Shown here: positions 8,240-37,503 of the stretch, one piece after another
Layout of the letters: the number at the start of each line of letters is the position of its first letter
How positions within the stretch are numbered: position 1 is the first letter of the stretch
Origin: Thermodesulfobacteriota bacterium
GTDB lineage: Bacteria > Desulfobacterota > BSN033 > UBA1163
Assembly: GCA_035319625.1 (NCBI GenBank)
Contig: DATHCH010000182.1
Location: 1-50,767, forward strand
Direction of reading: 5' to 3'
DNA length: 50,767 nucleotides
The notes under the pieces: model-generated
Told to the model about the DNA's origin: nothing
Databases searched by the model: none
The model's input: only the letters and a program-made list of their open reading frames with translations
Translations under genes and position numbers: made by a program

Positions 8240-8263
8240 AAACACATCCTTCAATGTTGAATA

Positions 8264-8290
8264 CCAAAGTTCAAATGTCAAATGAAATCC
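8264..8290. repeat. Solitary W1 arm
   Basis: CCAAAGTTCAAATGTCAAATGAAATCC sits directly upstream of the 8239 start codon. No partner arm is seen. Confidence 0.5.
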
Positions 8291-8345
8291 TAAACTCTGA
8301 TGTCACCCCCCACCCCCTGAAATTCTGAAAAAACTCGGCCAGGAG

Positions 8346-9180: not shown

Positions 9181-9307
9181 GCAAAATGTCAAATGCCAAA
9201 GTCCAAAGTTCAAATTAAACTCAAAATCCAAATGACCGAACAATTCTCCATAACACATATTTGAGAATAAAAGTTCTGGAATTTGTCATTGATCTGAAAT
9301 TGCAATT
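9181..9307. repeat. W1 inverted repeat
   Basis: The A-rich arm GCAAAATGTCAAATGCCAAAGTCCAAAGTTCAAATTAAACTCAAAATCCAAATGAC faces the T-rich arm GGAATTTGTCATTGATCTGAAATTGCAATT. Confidence 0.7.
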
Positions 9308-12960: not shown

Positions 12961-13160
12961 CCTATCCATCTATTACGCTGAATTCAAGTGCAAAGTTCGA
13001 ACTTTAAAGTTCAAATCAATAACAAACAACTTCATGCCAAAATTTTAATCACTTGGATTTTGAGCTTCATTTGAACTTGACTCACCTTTGGTTCGTCACT
13101 TCGTGCGAACTTTGGCATTTGACATTAAGCCCATTACGGGTGAAAGAATGGTTTCTTAGC
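12961..13160. repeat. W1-type long inverted repeat filling the gap-pgk spacer
   Basis: W1 words on both arms include AAGTTCGAACTTTAAAGTTCAAATC, TTGGATTTTGAGCTTCATTTGAAC and CTTTGGCATTTGACATT. There is no credible ORF. Confidence 0.7.
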
Positions 13161-15512: not shown

Positions 15513-15513
15513 A

Positions 15514-15686
15514 GGGTTCTAGGATTCGAGGGTTCAAGGGTCCGAGTTTCCAAGAATTTAGCGTGACCACTGGTAAAAAGTCTCTTAGAGCTTTTTAAAT
15601 TCTTCTTGACGCTCTATTTTTTCTTCAATACTCCTATTTCTTTATCTTTCTTGACCCCTAGAATCCTTCACCCCTGGAACCCTGAA
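15514..15686. repeat. GC-word inverted repeat, family W2 (GGGTTC / GGATTC / GGGGTC words)
   Basis: The left arm is GGGTTCTAGGATTCGAGGGTTCAAGGGTCCGAG and the right arm is CTTGACCCCTAGAATCCTTCACCCCTGGAACCCTGAA. The right arm resembles the 3' end of the leader repeat at 26069-26100. Confidence 0.75.
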
Positions 15687-16610
15687 TTAGAGGTTGGTCA
15701 GGTGCCTTCGTATCTCCATCTCTTCCCTCAAAGAATCATTTTCTTTGAGCTCTTTTAAAGCCTCCCCGATCATCTGAATCATTCTCTCCTTATCTTCGGG
15801 GAGGTTTCCGTGGAGGGGAAGGAGATTGGAAATATGATCGCTCAAAAATTGAGAGGTCACGTGAAGCCCCTCTAATAGCAGCTTTGTTTCCTTTAATATC
15901 GTTTCTGGCGAAGCCAGTTGGAAACGACCCTCCGTCATGGCCTCGTAGAGCGGAGAGTTGGGTTGGGGAACAAAGGTCCGAACACGGATGAAATGGGGAT
16001 CGATTCGATTCAACACCTCTGCTGTGCCCCTCGCATGTTGTTCCCATTTTTCTTCACCGCCAATCCCTAACAAAACATACAAAGAACACTCAAACCCAGC
16101 TTTTTTCGCTTTTCTCCCTGCTTCGACCATCTCTTCCGGGGTTGCCCCTTTTTCAATCGCCTTGAGGAGGTCCTGATCGCCGGTCTCAAGCCCGACATGG
16201 AGTCTGGTTAAACCCGCTTCACGGATTTTTATCAAATCCTCTAAAGGTTTCTTGGCAATGGTCTTGGCTCGCGCATAACTGGTCATCCGCTCGATATGGG
16301 GAAAGGAGGAAAATAAGGTGTTCAAAATTTTGACCAACATCTCGGTCTTCGCCACAAGGCTATCGGAATCTCCAATAAAAATCGTCCTGACCCTATCCCC
16401 ATAAAGATTTCTTGCTGACTCGATATCTTCGAGAATCTCTTCGATCTCTCTAATTTCGAACTTCATCCCTTTATACATCGAACAGAAAGCACACCGGTTC
16501 CAGGGACATCCTCGGGTCACCCTTAGAAGAAGGCTGTTCGCTTCGCTGGGCGGCCTGAAAGGTGGGAAATCATAATCTCTTCTTCTCAATCCAAATCTGC
16601 CGATGGTCAT
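15687..16610 (-). CDS. Radical SAM protein (function unknown)
   Basis: It has a CxxxCxxC cluster motif (GCPWNRCAFCSMY) and no C-terminal Cys-rich SPASM-like region. I prefer the ATG at 16610 (MTIGRF...), because the listed TTG at 16637 lies in a W1 repeat. Confidence 0.75.
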   Translation of the reverse strand: MTIGRFGLRRRDYDFPPFRPPSEANSLLLRVTRGCPWNRCAFCSMYKGMKFEIREIEEILEDIESARNLYGDRVRTIFIGDSDSLVAKTEMLVKILNTLFSSFPHIERMTSYARAKTIAKKPLEDLIKIREAGLTRLHVGLETGDQDLLKAIEKGATPEEMVEAGRKAKKAGFECSLYVLLGIGGEEKWEQHARGTAEVLNRIDPHFIRVRTFVPQPNSPLYEAMTEGRFQLASPETILKETKLLLEGLHVTSQFLSDHISNLLPLHGNLPEDKERMIQMIGEALKELKENDSLREEMEIRRHLTNL

Positions 16611-16627: not shown

Positions 16628-16740
16628 CAAATGTCAAATTTCAAGGTTCAAATGTCAAATCAATTCCAAAGCACAAATGTCCAAAAAGTTTGGTCTTGAA
16701 CTTTGAAATTTTTTGACATTCGGATTTTGACATTTGAACT
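16628..16740. repeat. W1 inverted repeat between the two radical-SAM genes
   Basis: CAAATGTCAAATTTCAAGGTTCAAATGTCAAATCAATTCCAAAGCACAAATGTCC faces TTGAAATTTTTTGACATTCGGATTTTGACATTTGAAC. Confidence 0.8.
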
Positions 16741-16743
16741 TTT

Positions 16744-20793: not shown

Positions 20794-20902
20794 CGGTTAT
20801 CGGGTTACTTGGGTTATTGGGTCTTTTGGGTTTCTTGTGTTTAATGATTTCATAACTCTAAAAACCCTATGAACTCAATAAACCCGATGGACCCAATAAA
20901 TG
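20794..20902. repeat. Word-built inverted repeat, family W3 (GGGTTATTGGGT / ACCCAATAAA words)
   Basis: The left arm is CGGTTATCGGGTTACTTGGGTTATTGGGTCTTTTGGGTTTC and the right arm is AAAACCCTATGAACTCAATAAACCCGATGGACCCAATAAATG. Confidence 0.65.
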
Positions 20903-23266: not shown

Positions 23267-23468
23267 CTATCCCGATAGCCTCATGCCAAATGTCGAAGCC
23301 CAACGTCTAATTAAGGATAATTCTGGAATAATCAAATGAAGTAACGCTTAAGAACAAAAACGTTTTTTTCAACCCCATATTCCACCCATCCATCCTTCTC
23401 GGTACCTTTCTCATTTGCGATTCCTTTGGAATTCCAAATTTGTCATTTGATGTTTGGATTTTGGTCAC

Positions 23469-23924: not shown

Positions 23925-24468
23925 TGCCTCCTCCTAATAGAAAATAACGTGCCCCCTGTCAGTGACCTGTGTCCGTAATAAATGACAGCGGTTAAGAATC
24001 TCTATATATCTCAAAAATACGTCTCATTACATTAAGATTCTTAGGAATTGTCAAGACAAATTATAACATAGGAATCAACGAAAGAGGCTATTTCACCGTA
24101 ACTCATCTCCCGTGGTATTAAACACGAACTTCTCGAAGCCCCAGCCTGAAGCCTGGAGCTTGCTTCCGGTTCTCCTGAGCCCCACTTCTTCACGCCTGCC
24201 GTCAAGGACGGGGCTTCGTGCGGCCGAGAAGAGGATATTGGGCTCGAAGGGCATGACGCAAGAGGAAAAGGACAAAAGGATCAAGTCACTGCAAGAAGAG
24301 TTTTTCAGAAAAGAGTGAGAAGCCTTCCGGCGGAAAGAAGCTATACCAAAAGGAGCAGAGAAATTAAGATGGGCCGGACACTGGTTTTTTTATGAAAAAA
24401 ATTTAAAAATCTACCAAAGTCTTTTCTCTTCATCTATCTTGTTTCTTCAAAGGGAGAAGAATTCGAAT

Positions 24469-24786
24469 ATGGCCTGGCTGTTTTTAATCATTGCGGGAAT
24501 CATTGAGATCGGATGGGCAATCAGTTTGAAATATACGGAAGGCTTGACTCGGGTCTGGCCGAGCGTGTGGATGTTGACAGCGACAATAGCCAGTTTCTTC
24601 TTTCTATCCACTGCCCTTAAATCCATCCCGGTGGGGACCGCCTATGTGGTTTTCACAGGAATCGGAGCCGCCGGCACCGTTCTCTTCGGGATGTTCTTTC
24701 TGGGGGAGTCAAGAGATTTTTTAAGGCTTGCGTTTATTACGCTGATCATCTTCGGAACCATCGGACTGAAGTTTGCAGGGAAGTGA
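24469..24786 (+). CDS. sugE: SMR-family SugE/Gdx-type small multidrug/guanidinium exporter
   Basis: MAWLFLIIAGIIEIGWAISLKYTEG carries the conserved membrane Glu. The protein is 105 aa with 4 TM helices. I use the ATG at 24469 rather than the listed TTG at 24439. Confidence 0.85.
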   Translation: MAWLFLIIAGIIEIGWAISLKYTEGLTRVWPSVWMLTATIASFFFLSTALKSIPVGTAYVVFTGIGAAGTVLFGMFFLGESRDFLRLAFITLIIFGTIGLKFAGK

Positions 24787-24831: not shown

Positions 24832-25845
24832 TTAATACTGATCAAGCAACCATTTGCCGCTTTCGATTATCTTCTTCCCATCAATTTTGAGCGTCATCCC
24901 GCCGCTCACGGCATCATGATGGATATTGCTGTAGACATGGCCTCCGACGAATGTCGTATTCTTTCCGCAGGCGATGTGAAGCGTGCCTAAAATCATTTTA
25001 TCCGTAATAGTCCCAGAGAAACCTTCATACGTCAGTACGTGGTTGGTGGCAACGCCAAGTTCAGCGATGTTGGTCCCATTTTCATCCGCAGCGGTGAGGA
25101 TTTTCCGGCACTTCTCTGCCTCCGGCCCGTCACCCACAACTTCCACAATCCTGCCGTTCTTTATAATCCAGACAAAAGGTCTCGCGACCCTTCCCACATA
25201 CTCGAAAAATCCATTTACCACATATTTACCGTTCGCAGTGCCTTCGACAGGGGCTAGTACCGCCTCGGCATAAAGCGGTACAGCGCCCCATTCGCCTGGC
25301 TCCCACATCGACGCTCTCAACCGCTCGCATTTTCTTCCTTCCACGCTAAAGGTGAGGTCCGTCCCATCGGGGCTGGTAATACGCGCGATCTTACCGCTTT
25401 CCATGATCCTTGCGACTTTTTCCGTACGCTCTCGAATTTTCATGATGTCATCGTGTGTGATATTGGGCGAGAGAACAGGCGCCATGCCGAAACGCGCCTT
25501 TTTTTCATTAGTGGCTACATTTCTTGCTTTCGTGTGAGCGATGATTTGGGTGTTGTCGAGATTCAGCGTGGCCAGTATAACATCGCTCGTCATCATTGCA
25601 TCAACCACTCTTTTCGGGGGCTCCGCTTTCATCTCACTATCCTCTACAAAAATGACCGTGGGAATGGCCTGTAGACGCCGAACTTCGGCCTCAAGATACT
25701 TGCCTACCAGTTTCCGCTTTTCATCGTTCTGAACGATAAGAAGGACTTTTTCGCCGCTTTTAACATTCATACAGCTTTTGACGATTACCTTCGCCGCATT
25801 AACCCTCTGCTCCTCACTTAAATCTTCGACACCTAAACGATTCAT
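24832..25845 (-). CDS. Aminopeptidase, probably MEROPS M29 (AmpS/PepS-like)
   Basis: The C-terminal HIACGKNTTFVGGHVYSNIHHDAV resembles the M29 metal-binding region. I use the ATG at 25845, preceded by GGAGGGAG. Confidence 0.55.
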   Translation of the reverse strand: MNRLGVEDLSEEQRVNAAKVIVKSCMNVKSGEKVLLIVQNDEKRKLVGKYLEAEVRRLQAIPTVIFVEDSEMKAEPPKRVVDAMMTSDVILATLNLDNTQIIAHTKARNVATNEKKARFGMAPVLSPNITHDDIMKIRERTEKVARIMESGKIARITSPDGTDLTFSVEGRKCERLRASMWEPGEWGAVPLYAEAVLAPVEGTANGKYVVNGFFEYVGRVARPFVWIIKNGRIVEVVGDGPEAEKCRKILTAADENGTNIAELGVATNHVLTYEGFSGTITDKMILGTLHIACGKNTTFVGGHVYSNIHHDAVSGGMTLKIDGKKIIESGKWLLDQY

Positions 25846-25925
25846 GAAGTCTCCCTCCCCTGTGGTTTGTATTCTATACCACACTGAAAATTATTGGAAG
25901 TAAGAATTTCACTTGAAAGAAAGTT

Positions 25926-25954
25926 TTGAAACGAGATGCGGGAACCAGGATAAT
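25926..25954 (+). promoter_or_regulatory. Sigma70-type promoter, copy A of a triplicated promoter-leader module
   Basis: TTGAAA (25926-25931), 17-nt spacer, GATAAT (25949-25954), within the shared string GAACCAGGATAATGTG. Confidence 0.6.
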
Positions 25955-26113
25955 GTGGCAAAATAGGGACCAAAGATTCAAGGGGTCCAGCGCCAGAAGG
26001 TAGATCGTAGAGAGTAGAAGATGGCCAAACCTACACTCCAGCACCCACTTTCCACATTCGAATCTTAACCCCTTGACCCCTAGAATCCTCGAACCCTGAA
26101 ATTCCAATGAAAC
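25955..26113 (+). repeat. Conserved leader repeat, copy A
   Basis: It aligns with 33753-33905 over about 150 nt. A long-range helix pairs GATTCAAGGGGTC (25975-25987) with GACCCCTAGAATC (26075-26087). It ends in CCCTGAAATTCCAATGAAA. Confidence 0.8.
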
Positions 26114-26136
26114 ATTGAGAGATAAGGAGGTTTATT

Positions 26137-26685
26137 ATGGACGTTTATGAGGCAATTGAAAAGAGAAGAACGATTCGGGTGTACAAGAAAAAAGCGACGG
26201 AAGATCAAATACGAAAGTTTATCCTTGCGGGAGCAAAGGCGCCCTCCGGCGGAAACCGCCAACCCTGGGAATTCATCATTGTCGATGATGAGAAAATTAT
26301 TGATCAACTCTCTGAAATCAAGTACCAGCTGAATCGAAAATTCCCTCCTCAAGCTAGAGAAACTCAGAAAGAGGTAGAAGAAAGGGCTATCTCCCAGAAG
26401 AAATCATTCGAAAATGCAAGCGTTGTTGCCGTATGCTGTGGCTTAGAACAGGCACCAAGTGCGTGGCTCTGTGTCGAAAACATATCTCTGGCAGCGGTCG
26501 CAGACGGCCTTGGTACCGGAATCGTCTCCTATTGGGGCGAGGCGAAAAAACAGGCTGAAAAACTCCTTGGCATTCCGGCGGATCATGAACTGGTCTGCGT
26601 ATTGAAAATTGGCGTACCTGGAGAAGAAGGAACTCCACGAAAAAGACGGCCCGAATTCAGCTGGCTCCACCAAAATAGATTTTAG
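26137..26685 (+). CDS. Nitroreductase family protein
   Basis: It has RRTIRVYKKK, APSGGNRQPWEFIIV and a C-terminal VLKIGVPGEE. TAAGGAGG lies 7 nt upstream of the ATG. Confidence 0.85.
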   Translation: MDVYEAIEKRRTIRVYKKKATEDQIRKFILAGAKAPSGGNRQPWEFIIVDDEKIIDQLSEIKYQLNRKFPPQARETQKEVEERAISQKKSFENASVVAVCCGLEQAPSAWLCVENISLAAVADGLGTGIVSYWGEAKKQAEKLLGIPADHELVCVLKIGVPGEEGTPRKRRPEFSWLHQNRF

Positions 26686-26784
26686 GGACCAACGTTCGAC
26701 AGTATTATTCGTCTGGGGACAACCTTTCGAGCGAAGGGGGAAGGTCTTGCAATCAAGCAATTGTATTAATGCGAGACTCGACCC

Positions 26785-27810
26785 TTAATTTCTAATTTGT
26801 GCCCCGGATTGCTCAGGAACTTTGGTGGTATTTATCAGTCCTAATTTGCTAAACACCCACGGGGCGCCGTAAGTCACCCAAAAGCCGGTGAGGGCATAGC
26901 GCAGGTAACGCAACACTTGTGATAAGAGCGCCGTATCCCGCGGGAACACCATGCGCAGTCCCCACCACAAGATCATCAGGCCGATCACACCCACCGCAAA
27001 GCGCACAGCCCGTTTCCACCACGTGCCACGGGCATCAAACCCACCTCGGTGAAAGATTAAAATAGCACCGGCGACAAGACCGAAAAACGTGCCTGCGACG
27101 CCGACCATACCTGCTGTGCCACGGGGATGGATGACTGATTGGCCCGGCGCAAGTGAAAGGGCGCGTGCGGCAGTGAATTCCCATTGAGAAGGGTCAGCAG
27201 GTGGCACAAAGGCCGGTCCCACCATGCAGATGAAAAACAGCAACATCGAGGCAGCAAAGGCCAGGCCGATTTTTTGCGCGAGTGTGAAGCGATTAAACCA
27301 AGCCATTACAGCCGTTTCCCATTTCAAAAAAGCCCACAATATCAAACCGCCGATCAACCAACCGGCCAGCACATCCGTTGGAAAATGAACAGCCAGCACG
27401 ATGCGTGAATAACCAATCAGAAAGATGAGGGACGCCATCAGCCAGCGCAGCCAGCCCTTGACCCGCGCGGCCATTGTGCCCCAGACAGCCATGGCGTGTT
27501 GGGCGTGGCCAGATGGAAGGCCGTATGAACCTTCGGTACCGAACGCTCGAACTCTGTCGCTCACCCAGAAGGGCCGCGGCTGGTGAAAGACGAGTTTAAA
27601 AAAAATGTTCAGGCTGTCTGACACTGTCAAGATGACACCGAAACGCAGACCCAGGCGGACGTCCGCACACCAGTAGAGAAAGGGCATAATGAACAAGTAA
27701 AACTCTTCGGTGCCCAGGAAGCTAAAGAACCGGGCAGGAGCTACGAGCCAGGGGACGCTGGTTTGCAGTCCGGCGATAAAATTAATGCCCCAGTCAAGGA
27801 TGGGATTCAT
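26785..27810 (-). CDS. PAP2-superfamily membrane phosphatase
   Basis: It has the three PAP2 motifs KxxxxxxRP (KLVFHQPRP), PSGH (LPSGHAQH) and SRxxxxxHxxxD (SRIVLAVHFPTD), and is polytopic. The start is uncertain, at ATG 27810 or TTG 27873. Confidence 0.8.
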   Translation of the reverse strand: MNPILDWGINFIAGLQTSVPWLVAPARFFSFLGTEEFYLFIMPFLYWCADVRLGLRFGVILTVSDSLNIFFKLVFHQPRPFWVSDRVRAFGTEGSYGLPSGHAQHAMAVWGTMAARVKGWLRWLMASLIFLIGYSRIVLAVHFPTDVLAGWLIGGLILWAFLKWETAVMAWFNRFTLAQKIGLAFAASMLLFFICMVGPAFVPPADPSQWEFTAARALSLAPGQSVIHPRGTAGMVGVAGTFFGLVAGAILIFHRGGFDARGTWWKRAVRFAVGVIGLMILWWGLRMVFPRDTALLSQVLRYLRYALTGFWVTYGAPWVFSKLGLINTTKVPEQSGAQIRN

Positions 27811-28008
27811 GGGAATGACAAAAAACCTTTTTGGGGATAAGTTTACTATGCGAAAAACGGGGTTGAATGTCAATTAAAAAGACAGCGCGGGGGAGGAGGG
27901 AACCCTTGAAACCTGGGTGAGAATAATGGATTGTGTGTCGAGAATTTTATTCTATTCATATCTCGTCCTCTGTGATAAAAGAAAAGGCGGAGAAAAAACG
28001 GAGGAATC

Positions 28009-29454
28009 ATGGAAAAAAGCGTTAGGCTCTTCGACTATATCTTCAACCCCCGCTCGGTGGCCATCATCGGAGCCTCCCCTAACGATCTGGCCACTGTCGC
28101 GCAGATGAAAACAAAAATCAGGGATCGACTGTTCCTCGTAAACCCGAAATATACGGAGGTTCTGGGAAAGAAATGCTACCCGAGCATTTTGGACGTGGAC
28201 TCCGAGATCGACTATGTCATTCTCGGAGTCTCCGCCTCGGCCCTGCCTAAAGTTTTGGAGGAGTGCATTCAAAAAGGGGCAAAGGTAGCACACATTTTTA
28301 CTGCAGGTTTCAGTGAGACAGGAACCCCTGAAGGGATCGAACAGGAGAAGGAGTTGAAACGGATGGCAGCGGGCAGGATCCGGATCATCGGCCCCAATTG
28401 TTTTGGGGTCTATTGCCCCTCCTCGGGGTTGACGATTGTTCCAGAGGCACCCACGGAGAGCGGCCACTTGGGGGTCATTACCCAGAGTGGCAGCGTGGCC
28501 GAATCCTTCTCCTACTTTGCCAATACCAAAAATCTCAGATTCAGCAAAATGGTAAGTTATGGCAATGCCATTGACCTGGACGCTCCTGATTTCCTGGAAT
28601 ACCTGGCTGACGACCCGGATACAAAGATGATCTCTCTCTACATTGAAGGCACCCGGAATGGCGCGGCTCTGAAAACGGCTCTGGCCAAGACCGCAAAGCA
28701 AAAGCCGGTGATCGCCATCAAAGGGGGGATGACGGAGCAGGGCATCCGGGCAGCTACCTCTCATACAGCTTCCCTGGCCGGGGCCCCTGAAATCTGGAGG
28801 ACTCTCTTTAGACAAACCGGAACGCTTCAAGTGGGAAGCTTCGATGACATGGTGAATATCGCCATGGCTCTCGACACCTCTCCTCTCCCTGTGGGCCGAT
28901 CCCTTGCCATGATCACCAACTCCGGGGGGTTCAGTGTCATCCAAACGGACCTCTGTATGAATGCGGGAATCGAGGTGCCAAAGTTTTCCCGGGAGACCAT
29001 CGAAGCGCTTCGGGCGTTGGTCCCCCTTGCGGGAACCAGTATCGGGAATCCCCTTGACGCCTGGCCCATCTACTATAATGTATCTCCCTCAGGGAATATG
29101 GCTGATATCATCCAGATTGTGTCCTCAGACCGAAACACCCATTCTTTGGTATTTCAATTTGATCAATTTCGCTATCTAAGGCGGATCTTGGGTCAAAAGG
29201 TGGAGGCCCACATGAAGCGATTAATCGAGTTGATGGTTGAAGGATGCGAGCGCAGCCGGGAGAAAGAGAAAAAACCGGTGTTGGTCACTGTCTCCTTAGA
29301 TCCCTATCTGGAAGATCAGGAAGAGAGATACTACAACCTCATGATAAAAAGAGCATTTGCGGCAAAAGGCTTTCCCGTCTATTCAAATATGGACACAGCG
29401 ATAAAGGCTCTTTCCAATTTGTGCAAATTCAGTCTTAGCCGAAGTCAGGCCTAA
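28009..29454 (+). CDS. ADP-forming acyl-CoA synthetase alpha-type subunit (CoA-binding plus succinyl-CoA-synthetase-like domains)
   Basis: It has NPRSVAIIGASPN (CoA-binding Rossmann), GPNCFG, and the phosphohistidine loop ATSHTASLAG. No ATP-grasp (beta) part is present in this gene or next to it. Confidence 0.75.
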   Translation: MEKSVRLFDYIFNPRSVAIIGASPNDLATVAQMKTKIRDRLFLVNPKYTEVLGKKCYPSILDVDSEIDYVILGVSASALPKVLEECIQKGAKVAHIFTAGFSETGTPEGIEQEKELKRMAAGRIRIIGPNCFGVYCPSSGLTIVPEAPTESGHLGVITQSGSVAESFSYFANTKNLRFSKMVSYGNAIDLDAPDFLEYLADDPDTKMISLYIEGTRNGAALKTALAKTAKQKPVIAIKGGMTEQGIRAATSHTASLAGAPEIWRTLFRQTGTLQVGSFDDMVNIAMALDTSPLPVGRSLAMITNSGGFSVIQTDLCMNAGIEVPKFSRETIEALRALVPLAGTSIGNPLDAWPIYYNVSPSGNMADIIQIVSSDRNTHSLVFQFDQFRYLRRILGQKVEAHMKRLIELMVEGCERSREKEKKPVLVTVSLDPYLEDQEERYYNLMIKRAFAAKGFPVYSNMDTAIKALSNLCKFSLSRSQA

Positions 29455-29703
29455 TAGATAGAAGGGGGCAGTCCGTCAATCCTTGAAATAGTTTCCGACC
29501 GGTCAGAAAAACCATTTTTTTGACACTGTCATATCTCCCTCTGATATCCCCAAGAATTGAATCGCTTGCCGTGAATACAAATCCGAATTTCTCAAGAAAT
29601 GGTTGTAGGGTTTCCTGCTGGAGTTCAGAGGCGTACTTCTATTTATATATCTCTATAAGATTCAGTACCATCCCTCTCTGCCTTTGAAACTTGAAAGGAC
29701 ATC

Positions 29704-29732
29704 TTGAAAAAAGCCCTAAGAACCAGGATAAT
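29704..29732 (+). promoter_or_regulatory. Sigma70-type promoter, copy B of the triplicated module
   Basis: TTGAAA (29704-29709), 17-nt spacer, GATAAT (29727-29732), with the same GAACCAGGATAATGTG core. Leader similarity ends near 29775. Confidence 0.6.
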
Positions 29733-29845
29733 GTGCGGAAGAAGGATTCAAGGGGCCGAGAAGGTAGATATTTTGGCGGATTCCTGCCTCCAAGTTATGA
29801 AGAACCACGTTTTTCAAAATGCGGTGTAAGAATACAGGAGGAGAT

Positions 29846-30382
29846 ATGGCAGTAGAAAAAGCAAGAGCAGTGAGAAAGAAGTCTCAGGAGAAGCGTCGCC
29901 TCAACCTCACGGTCAATGGGCAGCCCATTGAGCTGGAAGTGGGAACAGAACCTCATCAGGTTGACCCCGCCCACACGCTGGCTCATACGCTCCGGGAAAC
30001 GCTGGGCCTTACCGGTACAAAGGTATCATGCGACCACGGTGCCTGTGGAAGCTGTACCGTGCTTATGGATGGAAAGGCTGTCCTTTCCTGCATGACGCTC
30101 GCCGTTGAGTGCAATGGGAAGCAAATAACAACGATCGAAGGTCTGAGCGATCCGAAGACAGGGAGAATGGATCCCCTTCAGCAGGCATTCATCGACTACA
30201 CGGCCTTTCAGTGCGGATTCTGCACACCCGGCATGATCATGAGTGCAAAAGCTCTCCTTTACGAGAATCCATTCCCCACGGAAGAAGAGGTGAAGGAAGG
30301 CCTGTCTGGTAACTTCTGTCGGTGTATCAGCCACTATCAGGTGGTGAAGGCCGTTGTGGCAGCATCCAAAGAGGTGAGGTGA
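29846..30382 (+). CDS. [2Fe-2S] small subunit of a xanthine-dehydrogenase-family molybdoenzyme (4-hydroxybenzoyl-CoA reductase gamma-like)
   Basis: It has CDHGACGSCTV and CGFCTPGMIMS...GNFCRCISHY cluster motifs. The ATG at 29846 is preceded by AGGAGG. Confidence 0.85.
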   Translation: MAVEKARAVRKKSQEKRRLNLTVNGQPIELEVGTEPHQVDPAHTLAHTLRETLGLTGTKVSCDHGACGSCTVLMDGKAVLSCMTLAVECNGKQITTIEGLSDPKTGRMDPLQQAFIDYTAFQCGFCTPGMIMSAKALLYENPFPTEEEVKEGLSGNFCRCISHYQVVKAVVAASKEVR

Positions 30383-30387
30383 GCAAA

Positions 30388-32679
30388 ATGGCCAACACGT
30401 ACCGGTATATAGGCAAGGCGACCCCCAGAAAAGACGCAACAGAGATTGTTACGGGAGGAACAGAATACCTTAACGATATCAAGTTTCCCGATTTGCTCTA
30501 CGGAAAAGTGCTCCGAAGCCCCCACCCCCATGCGCTTATTAAAAAGGTTGATAAGAGTAAGGCATTGAGGCTTGATGGGGTTAAAGCAGTACTCACCTGG
30601 GAAGATGTCCCCGATTGGAAAGGGGGTACGCCCCGCTATACCCGCATCCTCGACCGGAAGGTCCGCTATGTCGGTGATGCTGTGGCGCTCGTTGCTGCCA
30701 TAACTGAAGAGATCGCAAAAGAGGCCCTTCGCCTGATAAATGTGGAATATGAGCTTTTACCTGCTGTCTTTGACATGGAAAAGGCATTGAAGCCCAACGC
30801 CCCCCAGCTTTATGACGAATTCCCCGGGAACGTAGTAACCCCCGGCGCTCCCTTTTTCGGACCGAAGAGCCTGAAGGAAGTGGCCACGGGAGATGTGGAA
30901 AAAGGATTTCAGGAGGCTGATGTCATGGCCGAAGGGACCTTTGGCTATGAGAACATACCGAACCCATTGCCTCCCGAGCCTCCAGGGGCAATAGCCCTGT
31001 GGGAGGAACCGAACAAGCTGACCCTCCGGGTATCAAATCAGGCTTCCTACATGGATAAGATCACCCTCTTCCATGTGATGGGGAGGAAAGTCGAAGTGAG
31101 AACTATTGGCGGCCCCTGCGGCGGCAGTTTCGGGTCGAAGTTTATGTCCTGGCAGGTCCAGTCCTATGCAGCGCTCCTAAGCCGGGCAACGGGCAAGCCG
31201 GTGAAACTCATCTTCACCAAGGAAGAGCACATGGCGGCATTCACGATGCGGCCTGCATCACGTATGAAGGCCCGGGTAGGCATGAAGAAGGACGGGACCG
31301 TAACGGCGATATCCGGCACGTGGCTTATCGACACGGGATACTACTCGATGACGACCCAGTCACAGGTTGCTGTTGGCTGCGGCGAGGTCCAGATTGCGGT
31401 CCGGTGCCCCAACTGGGACTTAAAGCCTGTGATTGTTTGTACCAACCGGAATGCCTCAGGTATCGTGAGAGGTTTTGGTGGCCAGGAACTGAAGTGTATC
31501 CTCACACCGATTCTGAGTTTAGCCATGGAAAAACTGGGCATCGATCCATTTGAGTTCCTCAAAAAACATTTCGTCAAGCCGGGCGACGGGTACTTTTGGC
31601 GGGACGGCATCTGGTATACGTACCGGGGCGTAGACTTTACAAAGGCAATGGATAAAGGCGCCGAGTTATTTGGCTGGAAAAACAGGTGGAAGGGATGGTT
31701 GAAACCCACGGCTGCGGACGGTACAAAACGGAGAGGGGTCGGTGTGGGTGTCCATGGAAATGCCGATATCGGCGAGGATGCCTCTGAAGCCTATGTGCGC
31801 CTTCATCCGGACGGAACAGCCATGCTCTCCTCCTGCGTAACAGAACACGGGACAGGTCAGAGAAGCAACTACATCAAGATGGTTGCCGAGGTGCTGCAGC
31901 TGCCCATGGAAAACGTCTCTATAACACCCTCCGATTCACTGATCAACCCCTACGAGTTTGGACCAGCCGGCTCCAGAGGGACCTATGCGATCGGAAGCGC
32001 TGTGATTGCAGCGGCAGAGGATGCCAGGCAAAAGCTCTTCGAGCTTATCGCCCCGATGTTTCAGGCAGACCCTTGCGACCTGGAGACCGTGGACGGGGTC
32101 ATTTTCGTCAAGAGTCATCCGGAAAAGAGGATATCTTGGAAGGCAATGAGTATTGACCGCACGGTCACCGGCTATGGACGGTTTGAACCTGATTATACAC
32201 TGACGAATTGTATGATGTCGTTCGTTGACGTTGAGGTCGATACCGAAACGGGGAACGTAACCTTGCTCCGTGTCGTCAACACCACAGACGCAGGCCAGAT
32301 CATCGATCCCCCCGGTCTCGAAGGCCAGATGAACGGGTGCCTCGGCTCAGGAGGTATCGATAGCGCCCTTTTTGAGGAGACGATCCTTGACCGTTCCACA
32401 GGACATATCTTGAACGCAAATATGATCGACTACAAGTGGCGGACCTTTCCTCAGCTCCCCGTGATCAACAATGTCGCCCTGGAAACACCCTTCCCCAGCC
32501 ACCGCTTCCATGCAGTAGGGGTTGGAGAGATAGCCACATCACCGGGTCCGGCAGCGGTGCTCATGGCTGTTTCAAATGCCATCGGGGTCTGGCTGCACGA
32601 GTATCCGGTTACACCGGAAAAAGTACTCAAAGCGCTCGGCAAGGTAATGCCGAAGAAGAAGAAAGGAGGTGCGGCATGA
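30388..32679 (+). CDS. Molybdopterin-binding large subunit of a xanthine-dehydrogenase-family enzyme (4-hydroxybenzoyl-CoA reductase alpha-like)
   Basis: The 763-aa product starts at ATG 30388 (MANTYRYIGKATPRKDA..., a/b-hammerhead start). It has GGSFGSK and the C-terminal GVGEIATSPG active-site Glu region. Confidence 0.85.
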   Translation: MANTYRYIGKATPRKDATEIVTGGTEYLNDIKFPDLLYGKVLRSPHPHALIKKVDKSKALRLDGVKAVLTWEDVPDWKGGTPRYTRILDRKVRYVGDAVALVAAITEEIAKEALRLINVEYELLPAVFDMEKALKPNAPQLYDEFPGNVVTPGAPFFGPKSLKEVATGDVEKGFQEADVMAEGTFGYENIPNPLPPEPPGAIALWEEPNKLTLRVSNQASYMDKITLFHVMGRKVEVRTIGGPCGGSFGSKFMSWQVQSYAALLSRATGKPVKLIFTKEEHMAAFTMRPASRMKARVGMKKDGTVTAISGTWLIDTGYYSMTTQSQVAVGCGEVQIAVRCPNWDLKPVIVCTNRNASGIVRGFGGQELKCILTPILSLAMEKLGIDPFEFLKKHFVKPGDGYFWRDGIWYTYRGVDFTKAMDKGAELFGWKNRWKGWLKPTAADGTKRRGVGVGVHGNADIGEDASEAYVRLHPDGTAMLSSCVTEHGTGQRSNYIKMVAEVLQLPMENVSITPSDSLINPYEFGPAGSRGTYAIGSAVIAAAEDARQKLFELIAPMFQADPCDLETVDGVIFVKSHPEKRISWKAMSIDRTVTGYGRFEPDYTLTNCMMSFVDVEVDTETGNVTLLRVVNTTDAGQIIDPPGLEGQMNGCLGSGGIDSALFEETILDRSTGHILNANMIDYKWRTFPQLPVINNVALETPFPSHRFHAVGVGEIATSPGPAAVLMAVSNAIGVWLHEYPVTPEKVLKALGKVMPKKKKGGAA

Positions 32680-33647
32680 GGTCCTTCAAACACATGAATG
32701 CCCGGACAGTGGACGAAGCCTGCGCACTCCTTAGCGAATCCAAGGGCAAGGCCGTGCTCAATGCAGGTGGGACAGACCTGCTTTCGACCCTCAAGGGAGA
32801 GTACCTTTTTGACTATCCCGAAGCCGTTATCAATATCAAGACAATTCGTGGTCTCGACTATATCAAGGAAGATAGCAAGACACTGAAGATAGGCGCTCTT
32901 GCCAAGCTTTCCGACATTGCGAAGTCTCCTATTCTTAAGGAACGCTACAAGGTGCTTGCAGAGGCCGCCTATGCCGTCGCAACACCTCAGGTACGAAACG
33001 TAGCTACCCTTGGGGGAAACCTGTGCCAGGATGTAAGATGCTGGTATTACCGGTATCCACGTCATATCGGCGGACCCATCACTTGTCTGCGGAAGGGAAA
33101 GGGACGGTGCTTCGCTGTTAGCGGTGACAACCGGTACCACGCCATCATGGAGGCAAAGATGTGCTTTGCCGTGTCCCCTTCGGATATGGCCGTAGTATTG
33201 GCTGCGTTGAACGGACAGATCAGGATCGTAGGACCGAGGGGTGAAAGAAACATTGCCGTGACGGATTTTTTCAGTTCCCTGGAGAATGTCCTTGAACGTG
33301 GTGAGATGGTAAGAGAGGTTGAAGTTCCCAGGATCAGCGGCCCGGTGAAGCAGGCGTTTTTTAAATTCACTCTCAGGAGGCCTGTCGATTTTGCCATCGT
33401 GAGCGTTGCATCGGTCATAACGGTAAAAGAAGGGGTATGTGTGGATGCTCGCATTGCACTTGGAGCGGTAGCCCCAAGGCCTGTCAGAGCGAAGAAGGCG
33501 GAGCAGTTTCTAAAAGGTCGCTCCATCGACAATGATACCGCTGCCGAGGCAGCGGCACAGGCAGTCTTGGGCGCACGGCCTCTCAGCAAAAATGCATACA
33601 AAATAGAAATCACAAAAGCTCTCGTCAAGAGGGCCCTGATGAGCTAA
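32676..33647 (+). CDS. FAD-binding medium subunit (CoxM/HcrB-like) with a Cys-rich insertion
   Basis: The start ATG overlaps the upstream stop (ATGA at 32676-32679). It has the AGGTDLL FAD motif. Between LGGNL and SPSD lies an insertion of about 45 aa with Cys at residues 117, 122, 137, 145 and 163. Confidence 0.85.
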   Translation: MRSFKHMNARTVDEACALLSESKGKAVLNAGGTDLLSTLKGEYLFDYPEAVINIKTIRGLDYIKEDSKTLKIGALAKLSDIAKSPILKERYKVLAEAAYAVATPQVRNVATLGGNLCQDVRCWYYRYPRHIGGPITCLRKGKGRCFAVSGDNRYHAIMEAKMCFAVSPSDMAVVLAALNGQIRIVGPRGERNIAVTDFFSSLENVLERGEMVREVEVPRISGPVKQAFFKFTLRRPVDFAIVSVASVITVKEGVCVDARIALGAVAPRPVRAKKAEQFLKGRSIDNDTAAEAAAQAVLGARPLSKNAYKIEITKALVKRALMS

Positions 33648-33723
33648 TGTAACACAATCTGTCCCCGCCCCTTTCTTCACTTCTCTTTCCCTTGGCCAGT
33701 CTTTCCGATGTTTTAAGGAGGTC

Positions 33724-33752
33724 TTGAAAAAAAATCCGAGAACCAGGATAAT
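33724..33752 (+). promoter_or_regulatory. Sigma70-type promoter, copy C of the triplicated module
   Basis: TTGAAA (33724-33729), 17-nt spacer, GATAAT (33747-33752), with the same GAACCAGGATAATGTG core. Confidence 0.6.
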
Positions 33753-33905
33753 GTGCCAAAATGAGAGGTCAAGGATTCAAAGGGTCCAGCGCCGGAGGGT
33801 AGATTGTGGATAGTAGAAAGTGGCCAATCTACACTCCACCATCCACTTTCGACATTCGAATCTTGAACCCTCGAATCCTGGAGCCCTGAAATTCCAATGA
33901 AAACT
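33753..33905 (+). repeat. Conserved leader repeat, copy C
   Basis: It aligns with copy A. One helix pairs AGGATTCAAAGGGT (33772-33785) with ACCCTCGAATCCT (33867-33879). An inner helix GTAGATTG (33799-33806)/CAATCTAC (33825-33832) competes with GAAAGTGG (33816-33823)/CCACTTTC (33843-33850). Confidence 0.8.
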
Positions 33906-35204
33906 CAGCCAAATATCACCGTGGGTATCATGGATCGGCAAACCGAAGTTATCGGTCGGCTCGATGGAGACTTCCGCGGAGACGGTTTTGGCCCTATATC
34001 TGGCGAGTTTTCGGCAAAGTCTGATGCCGGGATGATTGTGCTCTTCGATGGTGCCCATCAAGAAATCGCTCGCTCTCCATCGATCAAGCTCACAGGACAA
34101 GACAAATCGATGTTTTCACTTTCCGACGTCACCATCGGAAGTCGCTTTCACTGGGAAAGGACAGAGGAGCAGACCTTTCAAGGGGACCTCATCCTCCAGC
34201 CCCGCGAGGACGGGACGATCGCTGTCATCAATGAAATCCCTCTTGAGGACTATCTGGAAAGTGTGATTTCCTCGGAGATGAGTAGTGCCGCTCCGATGGA
34301 ATTTCTGAAGGCTCATGCCATCCTATCCCGAAGTTGGATTCTGGCCGCACTCGATCGCAAGAATAGAGAAAAGGGAACATCAAAGTCGTCAGAGAAGACG
34401 ACCGATGAAGAAGTGATACGCTGGCACGACCGGGAGGAACACGACCTTTTCGATGTCTGCGCCGATGATCACTGCCAGCGCTACCAGGGTATCACGAAGA
34501 TAATATCCAAACAGGCCCGAGAAGCGGTGCGAGAAACACAGGGGATGGTAATAACCTATCAGGACAAAATCTGTGATGCCCGATATTCAAAGGCCTGTGG
34601 AGGAGTTACAGAAAACTTCGACACGGCCTGGGATGACAAGCGAGTCCCTTATCTCAAAAGCATTTCGGACGCATCCGTTCCGCATCGTCCGATCAAGACA
34701 GAAGAAGAGGCTTCAGCCTGGTGCCTCGCAAACCCCGATGCCTACTGCAACACAAAGGACGAAGGTCTTCTTGAGAAAATTCTTCCTGACTTCGACCGTG
34801 AGACAAGAGCTTTTTTCCGCTGGAGGGTGGATTATTCCCCCAACGAACTGGAAGAGATCCTTCGAGCCAAATCCGGTTTTGATTTCGGCGCGCTCCAGGA
34901 GATTATCCCTCTCCGCCGTGGCCCTTCGGGCCGAATCTCCCGGCTGAAAATCGTGGGCTCGAAGAGAAGCATCGTCGTAGGAAAAGAACTCGAGATAAGA
35001 CGCTGGCTCTCCAGGACCCATCTTTACAGCAGTGCTTTCGTTGTGAAGGTGGAATCGGGGCGATTCACATTGTATGGTGCCGGCTGGGGACACGGCGTGG
35101 GACTCTGCCAGATCGGGGCCGCAGTGATGGCGATGAAGGGATTTTCAGCAGAGAAAATTTTGGGACATTATTTTCGAGGCATCGAAATTCAAAAGGTATA
35201 TTGA
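33897..35204 (+). CDS. SpoIID/LytB-domain protein (no signal peptide in the predicted N-terminus)
   Basis: It has LEDYLESVISSEM, DDHCQRYQG, YSKACGGVTEN and GHGVGLCQIGA. The start codon lies inside the leader repeat, and the next in-frame ATG is at 33930. Confidence 0.8.
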   Translation: MKTQPNITVGIMDRQTEVIGRLDGDFRGDGFGPISGEFSAKSDAGMIVLFDGAHQEIARSPSIKLTGQDKSMFSLSDVTIGSRFHWERTEEQTFQGDLILQPREDGTIAVINEIPLEDYLESVISSEMSSAAPMEFLKAHAILSRSWILAALDRKNREKGTSKSSEKTTDEEVIRWHDREEHDLFDVCADDHCQRYQGITKIISKQAREAVRETQGMVITYQDKICDARYSKACGGVTENFDTAWDDKRVPYLKSISDASVPHRPIKTEEEASAWCLANPDAYCNTKDEGLLEKILPDFDRETRAFFRWRVDYSPNELEEILRAKSGFDFGALQEIIPLRRGPSGRISRLKIVGSKRSIVVGKELEIRRWLSRTHLYSSAFVVKVESGRFTLYGAGWGHGVGLCQIGAAVMAMKGFSAEKILGHYFRGIEIQKVY

Positions 35205-35293
35205 GGGTTCAGGGGTACGAGGATTCAAGGGTTCAGGCTTACTCTTCTTTAGTCCTTCACTCGAACCCTTGACCCCTTCGACCCCTTGAACCC
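35205..35293. repeat. W2 inverted repeat between spoIID-like and ampG
   Basis: GGGTTCAGGGGTACGAGGATTCAAGGGTTCAGG faces CTCGAACCCTTGACCCCTTCGACCCCTTGAACCC. It starts directly after the stop codon at 35202-35204. Confidence 0.75.
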
Positions 35294-35309
35294 TTTGGGT
35301 ATCAAAACA

Positions 35310-36602
35310 ATGTACATACAGAAACTGACATCGCGAAACCCTTGGGCTTGGGTTCCCTCTTTGTATATTGCTGAAGGGATTCCTTACACGATGGCCATGA
35401 CGGTTTCTGTGGTCCTCTACAAACGTCTCGGCATCTCAAACACCGACATCGCCTTTTACACAAGCTGGCTCTATCTTCCGTGGGTAATCAAGCCCCTCTG
35501 GAGCCCTTTTGTCGAGCTACTCCGAACAAAGCGCTACTGGATCCTTCTGATGCAGCTTCTCATCGGGGCGTCACTGGCCTGTATTGGATTCACGATCCCG
35601 GCTGCCCGGTTCTTCCAATATACCCTCGCCTTTTTCTCGTTGATGGCCTTTGGTTCGGCAACCCATGATACCGCCGCTGACGGCTTTTATATGCTGGGGC
35701 TTCCGGAAGATTTTCAGGCCGCCTTTGTCGGGGTGCGGACGATCTTCTACCGAATCGCCATGGTCGCAACCCAGGGCGGGCTCGTCATCCTCGCTGGCTA
35801 CCTTGAAGAAGGCGGCCATGGTATCCCCGCAGCCTGGTCTTTCTCACTTTTTATAGCGGCCGCCGTTTTCGCTGCCCTCTTCCTTTATCATCTATTTATT
35901 CTTCCCTATCCGCCTGCGGACCGTCCGGCGAAGCGCAACCCTTCGACGTCTGTTGCACGGGAGTTCCTCCACATCTTCGGCCTCTTCTTCAGGAAAAAAG
36001 AGATCCTAGCCATTCTTGCTTTCTTTCTCTTCTACCGGCTCGCGGAAACCCAGCTTCTAAAAATCATCGCGCCCTTTCTGCTCGACCCTCGTTCAGCGGG
36101 AGGGCTGGGAATCACCACACAGGATGTGGGAATCATCTACGGCACTGTGGGACTCATTGCACTGTTGCTGGGAGGACTTCTCGGCGGGTATGCCATTTAC
36201 AGAAAAGGCCTCAAGTTCTGGATCTGGATCATGGTCTGCGCGATGCATCTGCCGGATCTGGTCTTCGTCTATCTCTCTCAGGTCATGCCTGAGAATTTCT
36301 ATTTGATCAACCTGGCTGTTGCCGTGGAGCAATTCGGCTACGGCTTTGGCTTTTCGGCCTACACGATGTTTATGATCATGGTGTCGGAAGGAGAATATAA
36401 AACGGTCCACTATGCCATCTCCACAGGGATCATGGCCCTGGGCATGATGGTTCCGGCCATGGCAAGCGGTTGGCTCCAGGAGCTCATGGGCTATCAGAAC
36501 TTCTTCCTCTGGGTCATGGCCGCAACGATCCCGGGGTTCATCGTGGTGGCGCTGGCGAAGATCGACCCCGATTTTGGAAAGAAAAGGCCGAGGCGACGGT
36601 GA
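35310..36602 (+). CDS. ampG: AmpG-family MFS muropeptide permease
   Basis: Polytopic MFS protein. The N-terminal [15 protein letters not shown]...[20 protein letters not shown] resembles AmpG/PAT-family transporters. I use the ATG at 35310, because the listed TTG at 35286 lies in the W2 repeat. Confidence 0.7.
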
Positions 36603-36643
36603 GCCTGCTTGCGGTAGACAGGGGTGTGGAGGGCGAGGTGCCA

Positions 36644-37390
36644 ATGAATAAACGACGGTTCAAGACAGCTTTCATCCTGGGTGCCGGATTAGGAACGCGG
36701 CTTCAGACTCTGACAGATCAACTTCCAAAGCCGCTCCTGGAGATTCGAGGAAGGCCTATCATCACCTACGTGATGGATCATCTCCTAAGGGTTGGCGTGG
36801 GTCGCTTCATCGTGAATACGCATCACCGGTCGGAAGTCTATTCGGAGAAATTCCCTGACAGGCGATGGCGCAGTGTCCCCATTACCTTTCGCCATGAACC
36901 AGTCCTTCTGGACACTGCTGGGGGATTGAAAAACATCGAAGATCTCCTGGATGAGGACGAGGCCATCCTCTGCTACAATGGCGATGTCATCACCGATCTT
37001 CCCTTGCGGAGGCTTTTGGAGGCCCACGAGCAGAAACGACCGGAGGTCACTCTTGTCCTCCGAAGCAGTGGTCCTGTTCTGAACGTAAACATCAATGAGG
37101 CCGGTGAGATCTGTGATCTTCGGAGTATCCTCGGTTACACCCAAAGATATCCAGAAGCTCGAAGCTTCCTCTTCGCTGGCATCTACGCCGTGGAGACATT
37201 GTTTCTCCAACACCTCGAGGCCGGCAAAGTCGAATCCGTCGTCTCAGCCTTTGTGAGAAGAATTGTGAAAGAACCGGGATCGATCCGGGGGGTCGTCATC
37301 GACGAAGGCGAGTGGCACGACATCGGTTCCGTCGAAGCGTATGAAAAACTGAAGAGAAACAATTGGAATAATGGAAAGATAAAACAATGA
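36644..37390 (+). CDS. murU: Sugar-1-phosphate nucleotidyltransferase, MurU-like (N-acetylmuramate-1-phosphate uridylyltransferase)
   Basis: It has the NTP-transferase motif [24 protein letters not shown], is 248 aa long, and lies next to an AmgK-like kinase and ampG. The ATG at 36644 is preceded by GAGG. Confidence 0.65.
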
Positions 37391-37424
37391 ACAAAAAGTG
37401 AGAATAAGAAGCCCGATCATTATG

Positions 37425-37484
37425 CAGGGGCGGCATTCATTGCCGACGGACTCCGTCTCCAATAAATGGGGACGCTACAAATCC
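37425..37484 (+). repeat. Two-hairpin motif, copy 1
   Basis: CAGGGGCGG is followed by hairpin GGCA-TTCAT-TGCC (37432-37444), then hairpin CGTCTCCA-ATAAA-TGGGGACG (37454-37474), then CTACAAAT. The second copy is at 39610-39683. Confidence 0.7.
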
Positions 37485-37503
37485 TTATTTTCGATGGAAT
37501 AGA

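Follow-up and report, generated by a model that had tools for sequence, protein, structure and literature searches.

The locus and its three promoter copies

The stretch of DNA analysed here, hereafter the window, comprises the 50,767 nucleotides (nt) of contig DATHCH010000182.1 from a Thermodesulfobacteriota bacterium (GenBank assembly GCA_035319625.1), in which one promoter sequence, termed T1, occurs three times on the + strand in front of three unrelated operons. Copy A lies before a gene of the nitroreductase family, copy B before a three-gene operon for a molybdoenzyme of the xanthine-dehydrogenase family (XDH-family), and copy C before spoIID-ampG-murU-amgK; these clients had been named in an earlier, sequence-only reading of the window, and the assignments hold at the family level. 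The spoIID operon (33897-38559, + strand) is composed of a SpoIID/LytB-domain gene (33897-35204), an AmpG-family MFS gene (35286-36602), a MurU-like open reading frame (ORF; 36470-37390) and an AmgK-like gene (37504-38559); because homology of the MurU-like ORF begins near residue 65, its true start probably lies later than 36470. The XDH-family operon (29846-33647, + strand) is situated between copies B and C and encodes the [2Fe-2S], Mo-cofactor and FAD subunits of an enzyme that scores under every NCBIfam equivalog cut-off, 4-hydroxybenzoyl-CoA reductase included.

The repeats had been described as TTGAAA-N17-GATAAT, and a motif search, shuffled controls and a promoter scan bear this description out. 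The 16-mer GAACCAGGATAATGTG is found at exactly three + strand sites (25942, 29720 and 33740), with none further even at up to three mismatches, against 0.40 occurrences expected by chance, and none of 100 shuffles gave three sites. The promoter scan placed TTGAAA-17-GATAAT at 25926, 29704 and 33724, with 10 of 12 matches in each copy; all three combine hexamers near TTGACA and TATAAT, a spacer in the range of 16-18 nt, an A at -11 and a T at -7, as is typical of the sigma-70 type. The promoters span 25926-25954 in copy A (-35 TTGAAA at 25926-25931, a 17-nt spacer, -10 GATAAT at 25949-25954), 29704-29732 in copy B (-35 at 29704-29709, -10 at 29727-29732) and 33724-33752 in copy C (-35 at 33724-33729, -10 at 33747-33752), all on the + strand.

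Downstream of the promoter, copy A (25917-26112) and copy C (33715-33902) stay alignable, as had been read from the letters, with 80.2% identity across an alignment of 197 nt that contains the sequence blocks named at the time, and CCCTGAAATTCCAATGAAA occurs twice in the window against 0.01 expected. The homology of copy B with A and C covers the promoter and about 37 nt, ending in GGTAGAT at 29769, and copies B and C correspond over 42 nt only, at 83% identity. Upstream of the B promoter, positions 29580-29703 share homology with the flank that precedes spoIID in L029, L037 and L082, where L-numbers denote related loci from metagenome-assembled genomes (MAGs) and metagenome contigs that were compared with the window. 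The layout of A, B and C is not an assembly artefact, because independent metagenome contigs from two samples show it again (L054 carrying A, L128 carrying C, and L129 carrying B and C).

T1 before spoIID in related genomes

T1 loci were searched for with the pattern TTGAAA-N10-GAACCAGGATAATG in one genome per species and in metagenomes, and the T1 consensus reads CTTGAAAGAAGGTC-TTGAAA-AAAGGTCTGAGAACCAG-GATAAT. The scan of representative genomes returned 14 sites, at most one per genome; 13 of them belong to related MAGs, in which T1 stands directly before the spoIID ortholog in 12 and before an XDH-family operon in the remaining one. The metagenome scan returned 117 stretches, in which T1 is followed by spoIID without a leader (61), spoIID with a leader (32), the XDH-family operon (10), a nitroreductase (6-7), a CoA-ligase-like gene (2), spoIID with an internal deletion (5), or sequence without a recognisable client (about 10). 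T1 is kept at the orthologous spot before a co-oriented spoIID in 12 MAGs and about 90 metagenome contigs; the hexamers are conserved among the T1 loci, the first half of the spacer is variable and its 3' half is invariant.

The gap between GATAAT and the start codon is exactly 7 nt in 50 of 50 distinct leaderless sequences, of which 49 start with GTG and one with ATG. No Shine-Dalgarno sequence (SD) is present before the spoIID start in these 50 sequences, and the neighbouring genes have strong SDs. The start codon itself is real, because the N-terminal peptide of SpoIID is conserved as protein, with synonymous changes in the DNA, and this extends to distant homologs. Given the 7-nt spacing, the simplest reading for the 50 distinct orthologs would be a leaderless mRNA that begins on the spoIID start codon, and the fixed distance, which is the best in silico evidence on this point, argues for T1 as a working promoter. 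Judged by position and orthology, T1 is the apparent native promoter of spoIID-ampG-murU-amgK among uncultured Syntrophaceae-like Thermodesulfobacteriota, the clade to which the source of the window belongs. Carried over from the leaderless orthologs to the window, the same spacing predicts transcription starts at 25960-25962, 29738-29740 and 33758-33760 for copies A, B and C, within 1-2 bases of the positions proposed earlier (about 25961, 29739 and 33759).

Leaderless mRNAs are common in actinobacteria, Deinococcus and archaea, and most relatives of the window follow the same plan as far as the sequence can be read, with a -10 box, 7 nt, a start codon and no SD; they differ in using GTG almost exclusively, and the three copies of the window differ in that none is leaderless, their predicted 5' untranslated regions (UTRs) being about 140 (spoIID), 107 and 176 nt long. 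Leaderless, GTG-initiated transcripts are a prediction that would apply widely in the Syntrophaceae-like clade; the literature searched for repeats or leaderless transcription described in Syntrophaceae contained nothing relevant.

Two variants of the T1-spoIID arrangement were also encountered. The spoIID behind T1 in L033, L034, L081, L084 and L142 has lost residues about 13-197 in frame, and because this shortened form is seen in several samples, it is a recurrent variant rather than an assembly error. In L085, L100, L117, L124 and L137, about 110 nt stand behind T1 and a decayed spoIID start; they fold into a long hairpin with a terminal U-run, and its stems vary between contigs with the pairing preserved. 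This stretch gave no ORF match and no Rfam hit, and it may represent either a T1-driven small RNA or a terminated remnant.

Copy A and the coding remnants of spoIID

Copy A is an insertion relative to L003 and L005, which read AATTTCAAGAAAATCGC(A/G)TTCTCATCGAAAGACAAGGAGG at this site; in place of about 15 nt of this ancestral sequence, the window holds 201 nt (25912-26112, + strand) in the intergenic region between an M29-peptidase-like gene and the nitroreductase gene, consisting of the T1 promoter, the palindromic leader and a fossil of the spoIID start. The right end of the insert is CCAATGAAA, which contains the spoIID start codon and a lysine codon (ATGAAA) and opens a three-codon mini-ORF, ATGAAACATTGA (26107-26118, + strand), and in L138, L029 and L046 the spoIID orthologs begin ATGAAACATCAACC; the nitroreductase gene's own SD (AAGGAGG, 26124-26130) and ATG (26137) follow 3' of the fossil on the same strand, and the nitroreductase and SpoIID coding sequences are unrelated. 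For annotation, it should be noted that the ATG at 26107 and the repeats represent neither genes nor riboswitches. The left junction is common to the window, L022 and L072; therefore, the insertion predates their divergence. Short shared bases, CAT(C), are seen at the right junction, and no target-site duplication is visible at the junctions of copy A. The counterpart in L022 has a single promoter mismatch, a 38-nt core deletion in its leader and diverged flanks.

Similar fossils stand behind other extra T1 copies, with spoIID remnants of 2-46 codons: the CoA-ligase-like gene of L095 and L143 is preceded by 9 codons, a radical-SAM gene in L146, L043 and L127 by 12, and 38-46 codons are left in L050, L064, L111, L115, L146 and L082, while L059 and L131 carry a mutated spoIID start, GGGAAACATCAA, before the nitroreductase. 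The nitroreductase fusions have similar right junctions, CAT(C/T).A.AGA(C/T)AAGGAGG, and differ in their left junctions and leaders. All T1 client genes neighbour spoIID and are co-oriented with the promoter. Local, co-oriented clients together with spoIID fossils thereby indicate local recombination, in the form of duplication and deletion or of microhomology patches, and not transposition.

Further traces of change were noticed around this site. The M29-peptidase-like gene (24832-25884, - strand) that adjoins copy A is without a counterpart in L003 (compared at L003 4536-4580), where an SMR-transporter gene (window 24439-24786) is followed almost at once by the nitroreductase gene, a further presence/absence difference in the hotspot. 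L002 contains a complete 8-mer palindrome at 2981-3160, whose core starts as in the nitroreductase leaders of L062 and L072; behind it, adjoining the 3' end of orf362, lies a fragment similar to spoIID codons about 28-40, yet another remnant of an earlier spoIID 5' end.

A palindromic leader built from inverted 8-nt units

The leader consists of inverted arrays of degenerate 8-nt units, of the AGGGTTCA type on the left and of its complement on the right, around a replaceable core. In copy A it covers 25965-26097 (+ strand; left arm 25965-25988, core 25988-26066, right arm 26064-26097), and in copy C it lies in the 5' UTR of spoIID at 33764-33893 (+ strand; left arm 33764-33787, core 33787-33864, right arm 33862-33893). 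Copy B retains a truncated left part, AAGGATTCAAGGGGCCGAGAAGGTAGAT (29742-29769, + strand), at the end of which its homology to A and C stops. The long-range helices previously proposed for A and C turn out to be these inverted arms, and they are present in the minimum free energy (MFE) fold of A and in the consensus fold.

Twenty-five distinct leaders extend 12-137 nt past the leaderless spacing, 24 of which are true leaders of 56-137 nt and one a 12-nt remnant, and a leader is lacking at 50 of the 74 distinct T1-spoIID junctions. Leadered and leaderless states are scattered across the SpoIID tree, and the cores fall into several unrelated families that differ even between close relatives. 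The leadered forms of spoIID always start with ATG and have no visible SD.

Palindromes of the same class also occur away from T1. Four sites with 8-mer palindromes are found in the window against none in 10 shuffles, and in 1 Mb of related loci, 66 sites with 8-mer arrays were counted, of which half do not lie at T1 and 34 have both arms. In the window, one such element with inverted 8-mer arms of the AGGGTTCA type and a different core lies between convergent ORFs at 15513-15690 (no strand assigned), and sequence comparison confirmed that the 3' part of the leader resembles it; another, again with a different core, lies between the spoIID stop and the AmpG-like start at 35204-35295 (no strand assigned). 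In L029, the 78-nt core of the window type, 87% identical, is found 3' of spoIID in the opposite orientation. A genome scan with the core motif CTTTCNACATTCGAATCTT gave mostly unrelated actinobacterial matches and, among relatives, only L022 and L029, from which it follows that the core is not a high-copy element.

On these grounds, the leader is regarded as a REP-like hairpin element that sits in the 5' UTR, and not as a conserved riboregulator. A 5'-proximal hairpin could stabilise the mRNA or tune its translation, and the arrays suggest that intergenic palindromes made of short units form a class not yet described, whose members can turn a leaderless gene into a leadered one. Two other readings were rejected on inspection: an internal promoter in the right arm that would recreate a leaderless ATG transcript (TTGAAC/TTGACC-N18-TGAAAT) is only 4 nt away from the ATG and carries a G at -11, and the ECF-type (GAAC...CGT) and sigma-54 (TGGCAC-N5-TTGC) readings of GAACCAGG / TGGCAAAAT misfit in spacing and second elements.

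The XDH-family operon and a second promoter head

The XDH-family operon is absent from this site in L003, L004, L022 and L023, where a CoA-ligase-like gene is followed by T1 and then by spoIID, and L005 has a single T1 before XDH-family and spoIID genes; by this comparison, the operon is an apparent insertion between the promoter and spoIID. Between the window and the MAG MFD03726.bin.2.155 (the L001/L005 comparison), the XDH-family proteins (29846-33647) are 91-97% identical, and the flanking proteins are less alike (CoA-ligase-like 88%, orf362 84%, SpoIID 79%); therefore, promoter and operon have been exchanged between lineages as a unit, more recently than their surroundings.

The operon has a leader of its own at 29770-29845 (+ strand), with the SD AGGAGGAG before the ATG at 29846. 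This B-type leader, made of the left arm, the first bases of the window-type core and an operon-specific part, is kept in about 10 related contigs with varying upstream genes. It also holds a possible upstream ORF (uORF) of 10 codons at 29797-29829 (MKNHVFQNAV*), which 6 of 8 relatives retain, starting with either ATG or GTG, and the SD of the [2Fe-2S] subunit gene, GGAGG, could form base pairs with a CCUCC just 5' of this uORF (window 29787-29845). The fold of the B-type leader has a z-score of only -0.6 and one compensatory pair, and consensus folding of the B-type leaders revealed no convincing covariation. Between the uORF stop and the SD, the XDH-family leaders of L072 and L080 have an extra palindrome, GTTTACCCCGTTAGAAATTCC ... 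GGGATTATTTCTAGCGGGGTAAA, and that of L093 has a different, GC-rich insertion at the same site.

A second promoter type, T2 (TTGACAACACCTTCGAAAAAGTAATAAC), precedes spoIID in other relatives (L002, L006, L007, L009 and L010, as well as L146 at 5550), and it occurs twice in L082 (3654 and 6019), where one copy heads a radical-SAM gene. By eye only, its first 22 nt look like the T1 upstream TTGAAAGAAGGTCTTGAAAAAAG. T2 is interleaved with T1 on the SpoIID tree, and T2-headed leaders are homologous to T1-headed ones; the 5' region of the spoIID operon is therefore a recombination hotspot in which promoter heads are interchangeable, and the homology of the leaders points to allele replacement as the way in which they are acquired. 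A simple insertion of the leader with target duplication was rejected, as leadered junctions replace TCTGTG and the start changes from GTG to ATG. Altogether, at least 5 client genes and about six junction types are seen behind the promoter heads.

Origin of the three copies

Local duplication and capture of T1, combined with a REP-like hairpin element, probably explains the three repeats; the account builds on identity, orthology, junctions, coding remnants and distribution, from which promoter activity, start sites, the duplication mechanism and hairpin effects are inferred. In most members of the clade, RNA polymerase would start 7-8 nt past GATAAT, on the GTG, thereby producing a leaderless mRNA. 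In the lineage of the window, the 5' end of spoIID would have gained the hairpin element, probably by recombination with leadered alleles, and with it a 5' UTR of about 140 nt and an ATG start without SD. The T1 region would have been duplicated locally by recombination, either at microhomologies or by unequal exchange, and not by transposition. Copy C would be T1 at the native spoIID junction; copy B would be T1 at its ancestral site 3' of the CoA-ligase-like gene, now driving an XDH-family operon that was joined within the hairpin element; and copy A would be a patch of 201 nt, comprising promoter and hairpin element along with the two initial codons of spoIID, that was placed 5' of the ribosome-binding site of the nitroreductase gene. 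As a result, three unrelated operons would be transcribed from near-identical promoters.

Several points weigh against this account. Most T1 loci were gathered by a pattern that fixes both hexamers and GAACCAGGATAATG, whose conservation is accordingly not measurable from that set, and unbiased evidence comes only from the protein-anchored set, in which four of four T1 loci are exact, and from the L022 copy of A, with its one mismatch. The activity of every copy is a prediction. GTG is a poor leaderless start in E. coli, yet it is used in actinobacteria, and the leaderless starts in this clade are nearly all GTG. The leadered spoIID mRNA of the window would be without an SD, so that its translation is unaccounted for, and the invariant GAGAACCAG in the spacer goes beyond the contact needs of sigma-70, which suggests an additional bound factor. 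Moreover, the order of events, namely whether B or C is the original and whether one or several nitroreductase fusions took place, is blurred because the 5' regions have recombined between lineages.

The sequence-only reading had offered two explanations, a shared regulatory leader that defines a small regulon and a promoter-carrying element akin to miniature inverted-repeat transposable elements (MITEs). What stands of the former is that the operons form a small set co-promoted by descent, as in several related genomes these three kinds of operon again apparently stand behind this promoter; what does not is the leader, which most T1-spoIID junctions lack, whose core is variable, which is mostly missing from B and which shows no covariation. 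A selected mini-regulon, in which a factor binding GAGAACCAGGATAATG or the tandem TTGAAAGAAGGTC / TTGAAAAAAGGTC boxes would co-regulate wall recycling, the molybdoenzyme and the nitroreductase, is a tentative and rather doubtful proposal, although it is compatible with duplication and capture, duplication being the route and co-regulation the reason for which the copies were kept, so that the confidences in the two are not additive. It would account for the recurrence of the same three clients behind T1 in several lineages with differing leaders and flanks (10 contigs with the XDH-family operon, 6-7 with the nitroreductase), for a 3' spacer half that is invariant and superfluous for sigma-70 promoters, and for the nearly intact promoter of the A ortholog in L022, although its leader lost 38 nt and its flanks diverged. 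However, the client genes are without a functional link, the remaining clients are sporadic (CoA-ligase-like, radical SAM and an untranslated stretch), no regulator gene is linked, copy A is without the region upstream of -50, and the apparent conservation is inflated by pattern-based sampling. Far less probable still is a structured RNA leader shared by A and C, which would sense a signal and control both operons as a riboswitch-like or protein-binding 5' UTR. Copies A and C do have about 150 nt in common past the start site, a long-range helix is possible, and the fold z-scores are -1.5 (A) and -2.8 (C), with many orthologous leaders between -3 and -5; however, the leader is absent at the 50 junctions mentioned above, close relatives have unrelated core families, the A copy of L022 has lost 38 nt of the core, B is without most of the leader, and the MFE structures of A and C differ. 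RNAalifold on six window-type leaders, a set of low power for covariation, recovered the outer helix only, with 27 pairs, one compensatory pair and a penalising covariation term of +1.5 kcal/mol. Rfam gave no leader match at the gathering score over the whole window or at E<=10 over 25700-34100, returning only a tRNA elsewhere and a spurious Xist hit.

A MITE that carries promoter and hairpin as a non-autonomous transposable element with an outward promoter, similar to Correia or ERIC, is equally hard to credit. The hairpin part of the leader is indeed a REP- or MITE-like palindrome with inverted arms, its core occurs in the opposite orientation at a second site in L029, and intergenic regions contain further palindromes of this class at scattered places; to that extent the original suggestion stands. 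The arms, however, bracket the leader only (25965-26097 and 33764-33893) and leave the promoter outside, no terminal inverted repeats surround the whole module, and the junctions show no target duplication. T1 occurs once per genome in 13 MAGs, a 2.97-Mb contig included, its extra copies lie in the same neighbourhood of about 10 kb and in one orientation, and their spoIID coding remnants are a signature of segmental duplication rather than transposition. The core is low-copy, found in only L022 and L029 among the genomes scanned, and no transposase is nearby: none of the ORFs scanned between about 15.7 and 39.5 kb is an integrase or transposase, and neither a plasmid search with copy A nor a viral-contig scan with the T1 pattern gave matches. 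Improbable, if slightly less so, is a site for cassette recombination, in which the repeat of about 60 nt would be the crossover site for cassettes (the XDH-family operon and the nitroreductase) and its promoter activity incidental. The XDH-family operon is bracketed by the direct repeats B and C and exceeds its 79-88% identical flanks in identity to the MAG (91-97%), T1 and T2 heads have been swapped before one and the same leader, and direct repeats could allow cassettes to be excised and re-inserted through homologous recombination. Against it, no gene for a recombinase turned up around the locus in the window, the junctions vary from case to case between 2 and 46 codons into spoIID, unlike site-specific recombination, and both the strictly kept spacing of the hexamers and the constant 7 nt up to the start codon are characteristic of a promoter.

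Beyond the duplication and capture of T1, both T1 and T2 may be portable promoter cassettes that are copied or exchanged between neighbouring operons by recombination without a transposase, a more general idea that is on balance unlikely. Short-unit palindromes or microhomologies would be the candidate substrates, and the process may leave start-codon fossils and switch genes between a leaderless (GTG) and a leadered (ATG, SD-less) state. If it is true that such exchange is directed or favoured and does not consist of accidents, it would provide a concrete, reconstructible mechanism of promoter mobility, which is left open in the literature on putative mobile promoters (PMPs).

Comparison with known systems

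PMPs are defined by at least 80% identity over at least 50 nt between the upstream regions of unrelated genes within a genome, where neither a known mobile element nor an Rfam family is attached and the mechanism of spread is described as unknown (Matus-Garcia, Nijveen and van Passel, Nucleic Acids Res 2012, summarised in PMC3575422). The A/C pair agrees with the operational definition (80.2% over 197 nt, unrelated clients), whereas the B/C pair of the window, with 42 nt at 83%, is under the length criterion. T1 further differs from PMPs, as characterised there, in that its donor gene can be named (spoIID, with copies carrying its start codon or up to 46 codons), its copies are local and not dispersed, and the same promoter with the same clients recurs across a clade.

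Promoter capture by duplication or deletion at microhomologies has been documented in experiments (Li and Bock 2019, PMC6614815), and another case is Cit+ E. coli (Blount et al. 2012), as cited in PMC3575422. The likeness lies in the joining of a resident promoter and the first part of its gene to another gene without a transposon, with short shared bases at the junction. The laboratory cases arose as tandem amplifications under selection; in contrast, the products of T1 are old and fixed, common to several species, with single-copy client genes and no tandem client duplicate left. The type of event is known, and this new example adds the named donor gene, the start-codon fossils, the recurrence across a clade and the switch from leaderless to leadered. 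An apparent novel regulatory RNA or MITE thereby becomes a natural case of promoter duplication and capture in which donor gene, direction and junctions are readable, with intermediates of the capture preserved in related uncultured genomes, and it offers a worked example of operon rewiring without mobile elements.

REP/REPIN, ERIC and Correia sequences are palindromic intergenic repeats, as cited in PMC3575422. The leader is alike in being non-coding and hairpin-forming and in occurring in 5' UTRs, between genes of an operon and between convergent genes, and it differs from Correia elements in that the T1 promoter is not inside the palindromic element. Unlike the REP/REPIN system, no RAYT or other transposase was found among the window ORFs scanned. 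The STRR sequences of cyanobacteria are reportedly short tandem heptamer repeats (Mazel et al. 1990), and the leader arms are similar to them as arrays of short tandem units; they differ from REP and STRR alike in being inverted arrays of degenerate 8-mers with a variable number of units, interchangeable cores and a low-copy core. The leader can therefore be called REP-like and, in its short tandem units, STRR-like.

Other short-unit palindromes in the window

A second family of palindromes, with tandem units of about 7 nt (CAAATGT / CCAAAGT / AAATGCC), is present at 3701-3822, 8252-8313, 9184-9245, 12991-13126, 16629-16742 and 23425-23455, and within it, 3792-3822 and 16712-16742 share a 31-nt block at 97% identity; these intergenic palindromes resemble the heptamer repeats of the cyanobacterial STRR type. 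Similarly, an array of 9-nt units, GGGTTACTT, with an inverted partner, AACTCAATAAACCCGATG, occupies 20795-20900 and represents a third flavour of short-unit palindrome.

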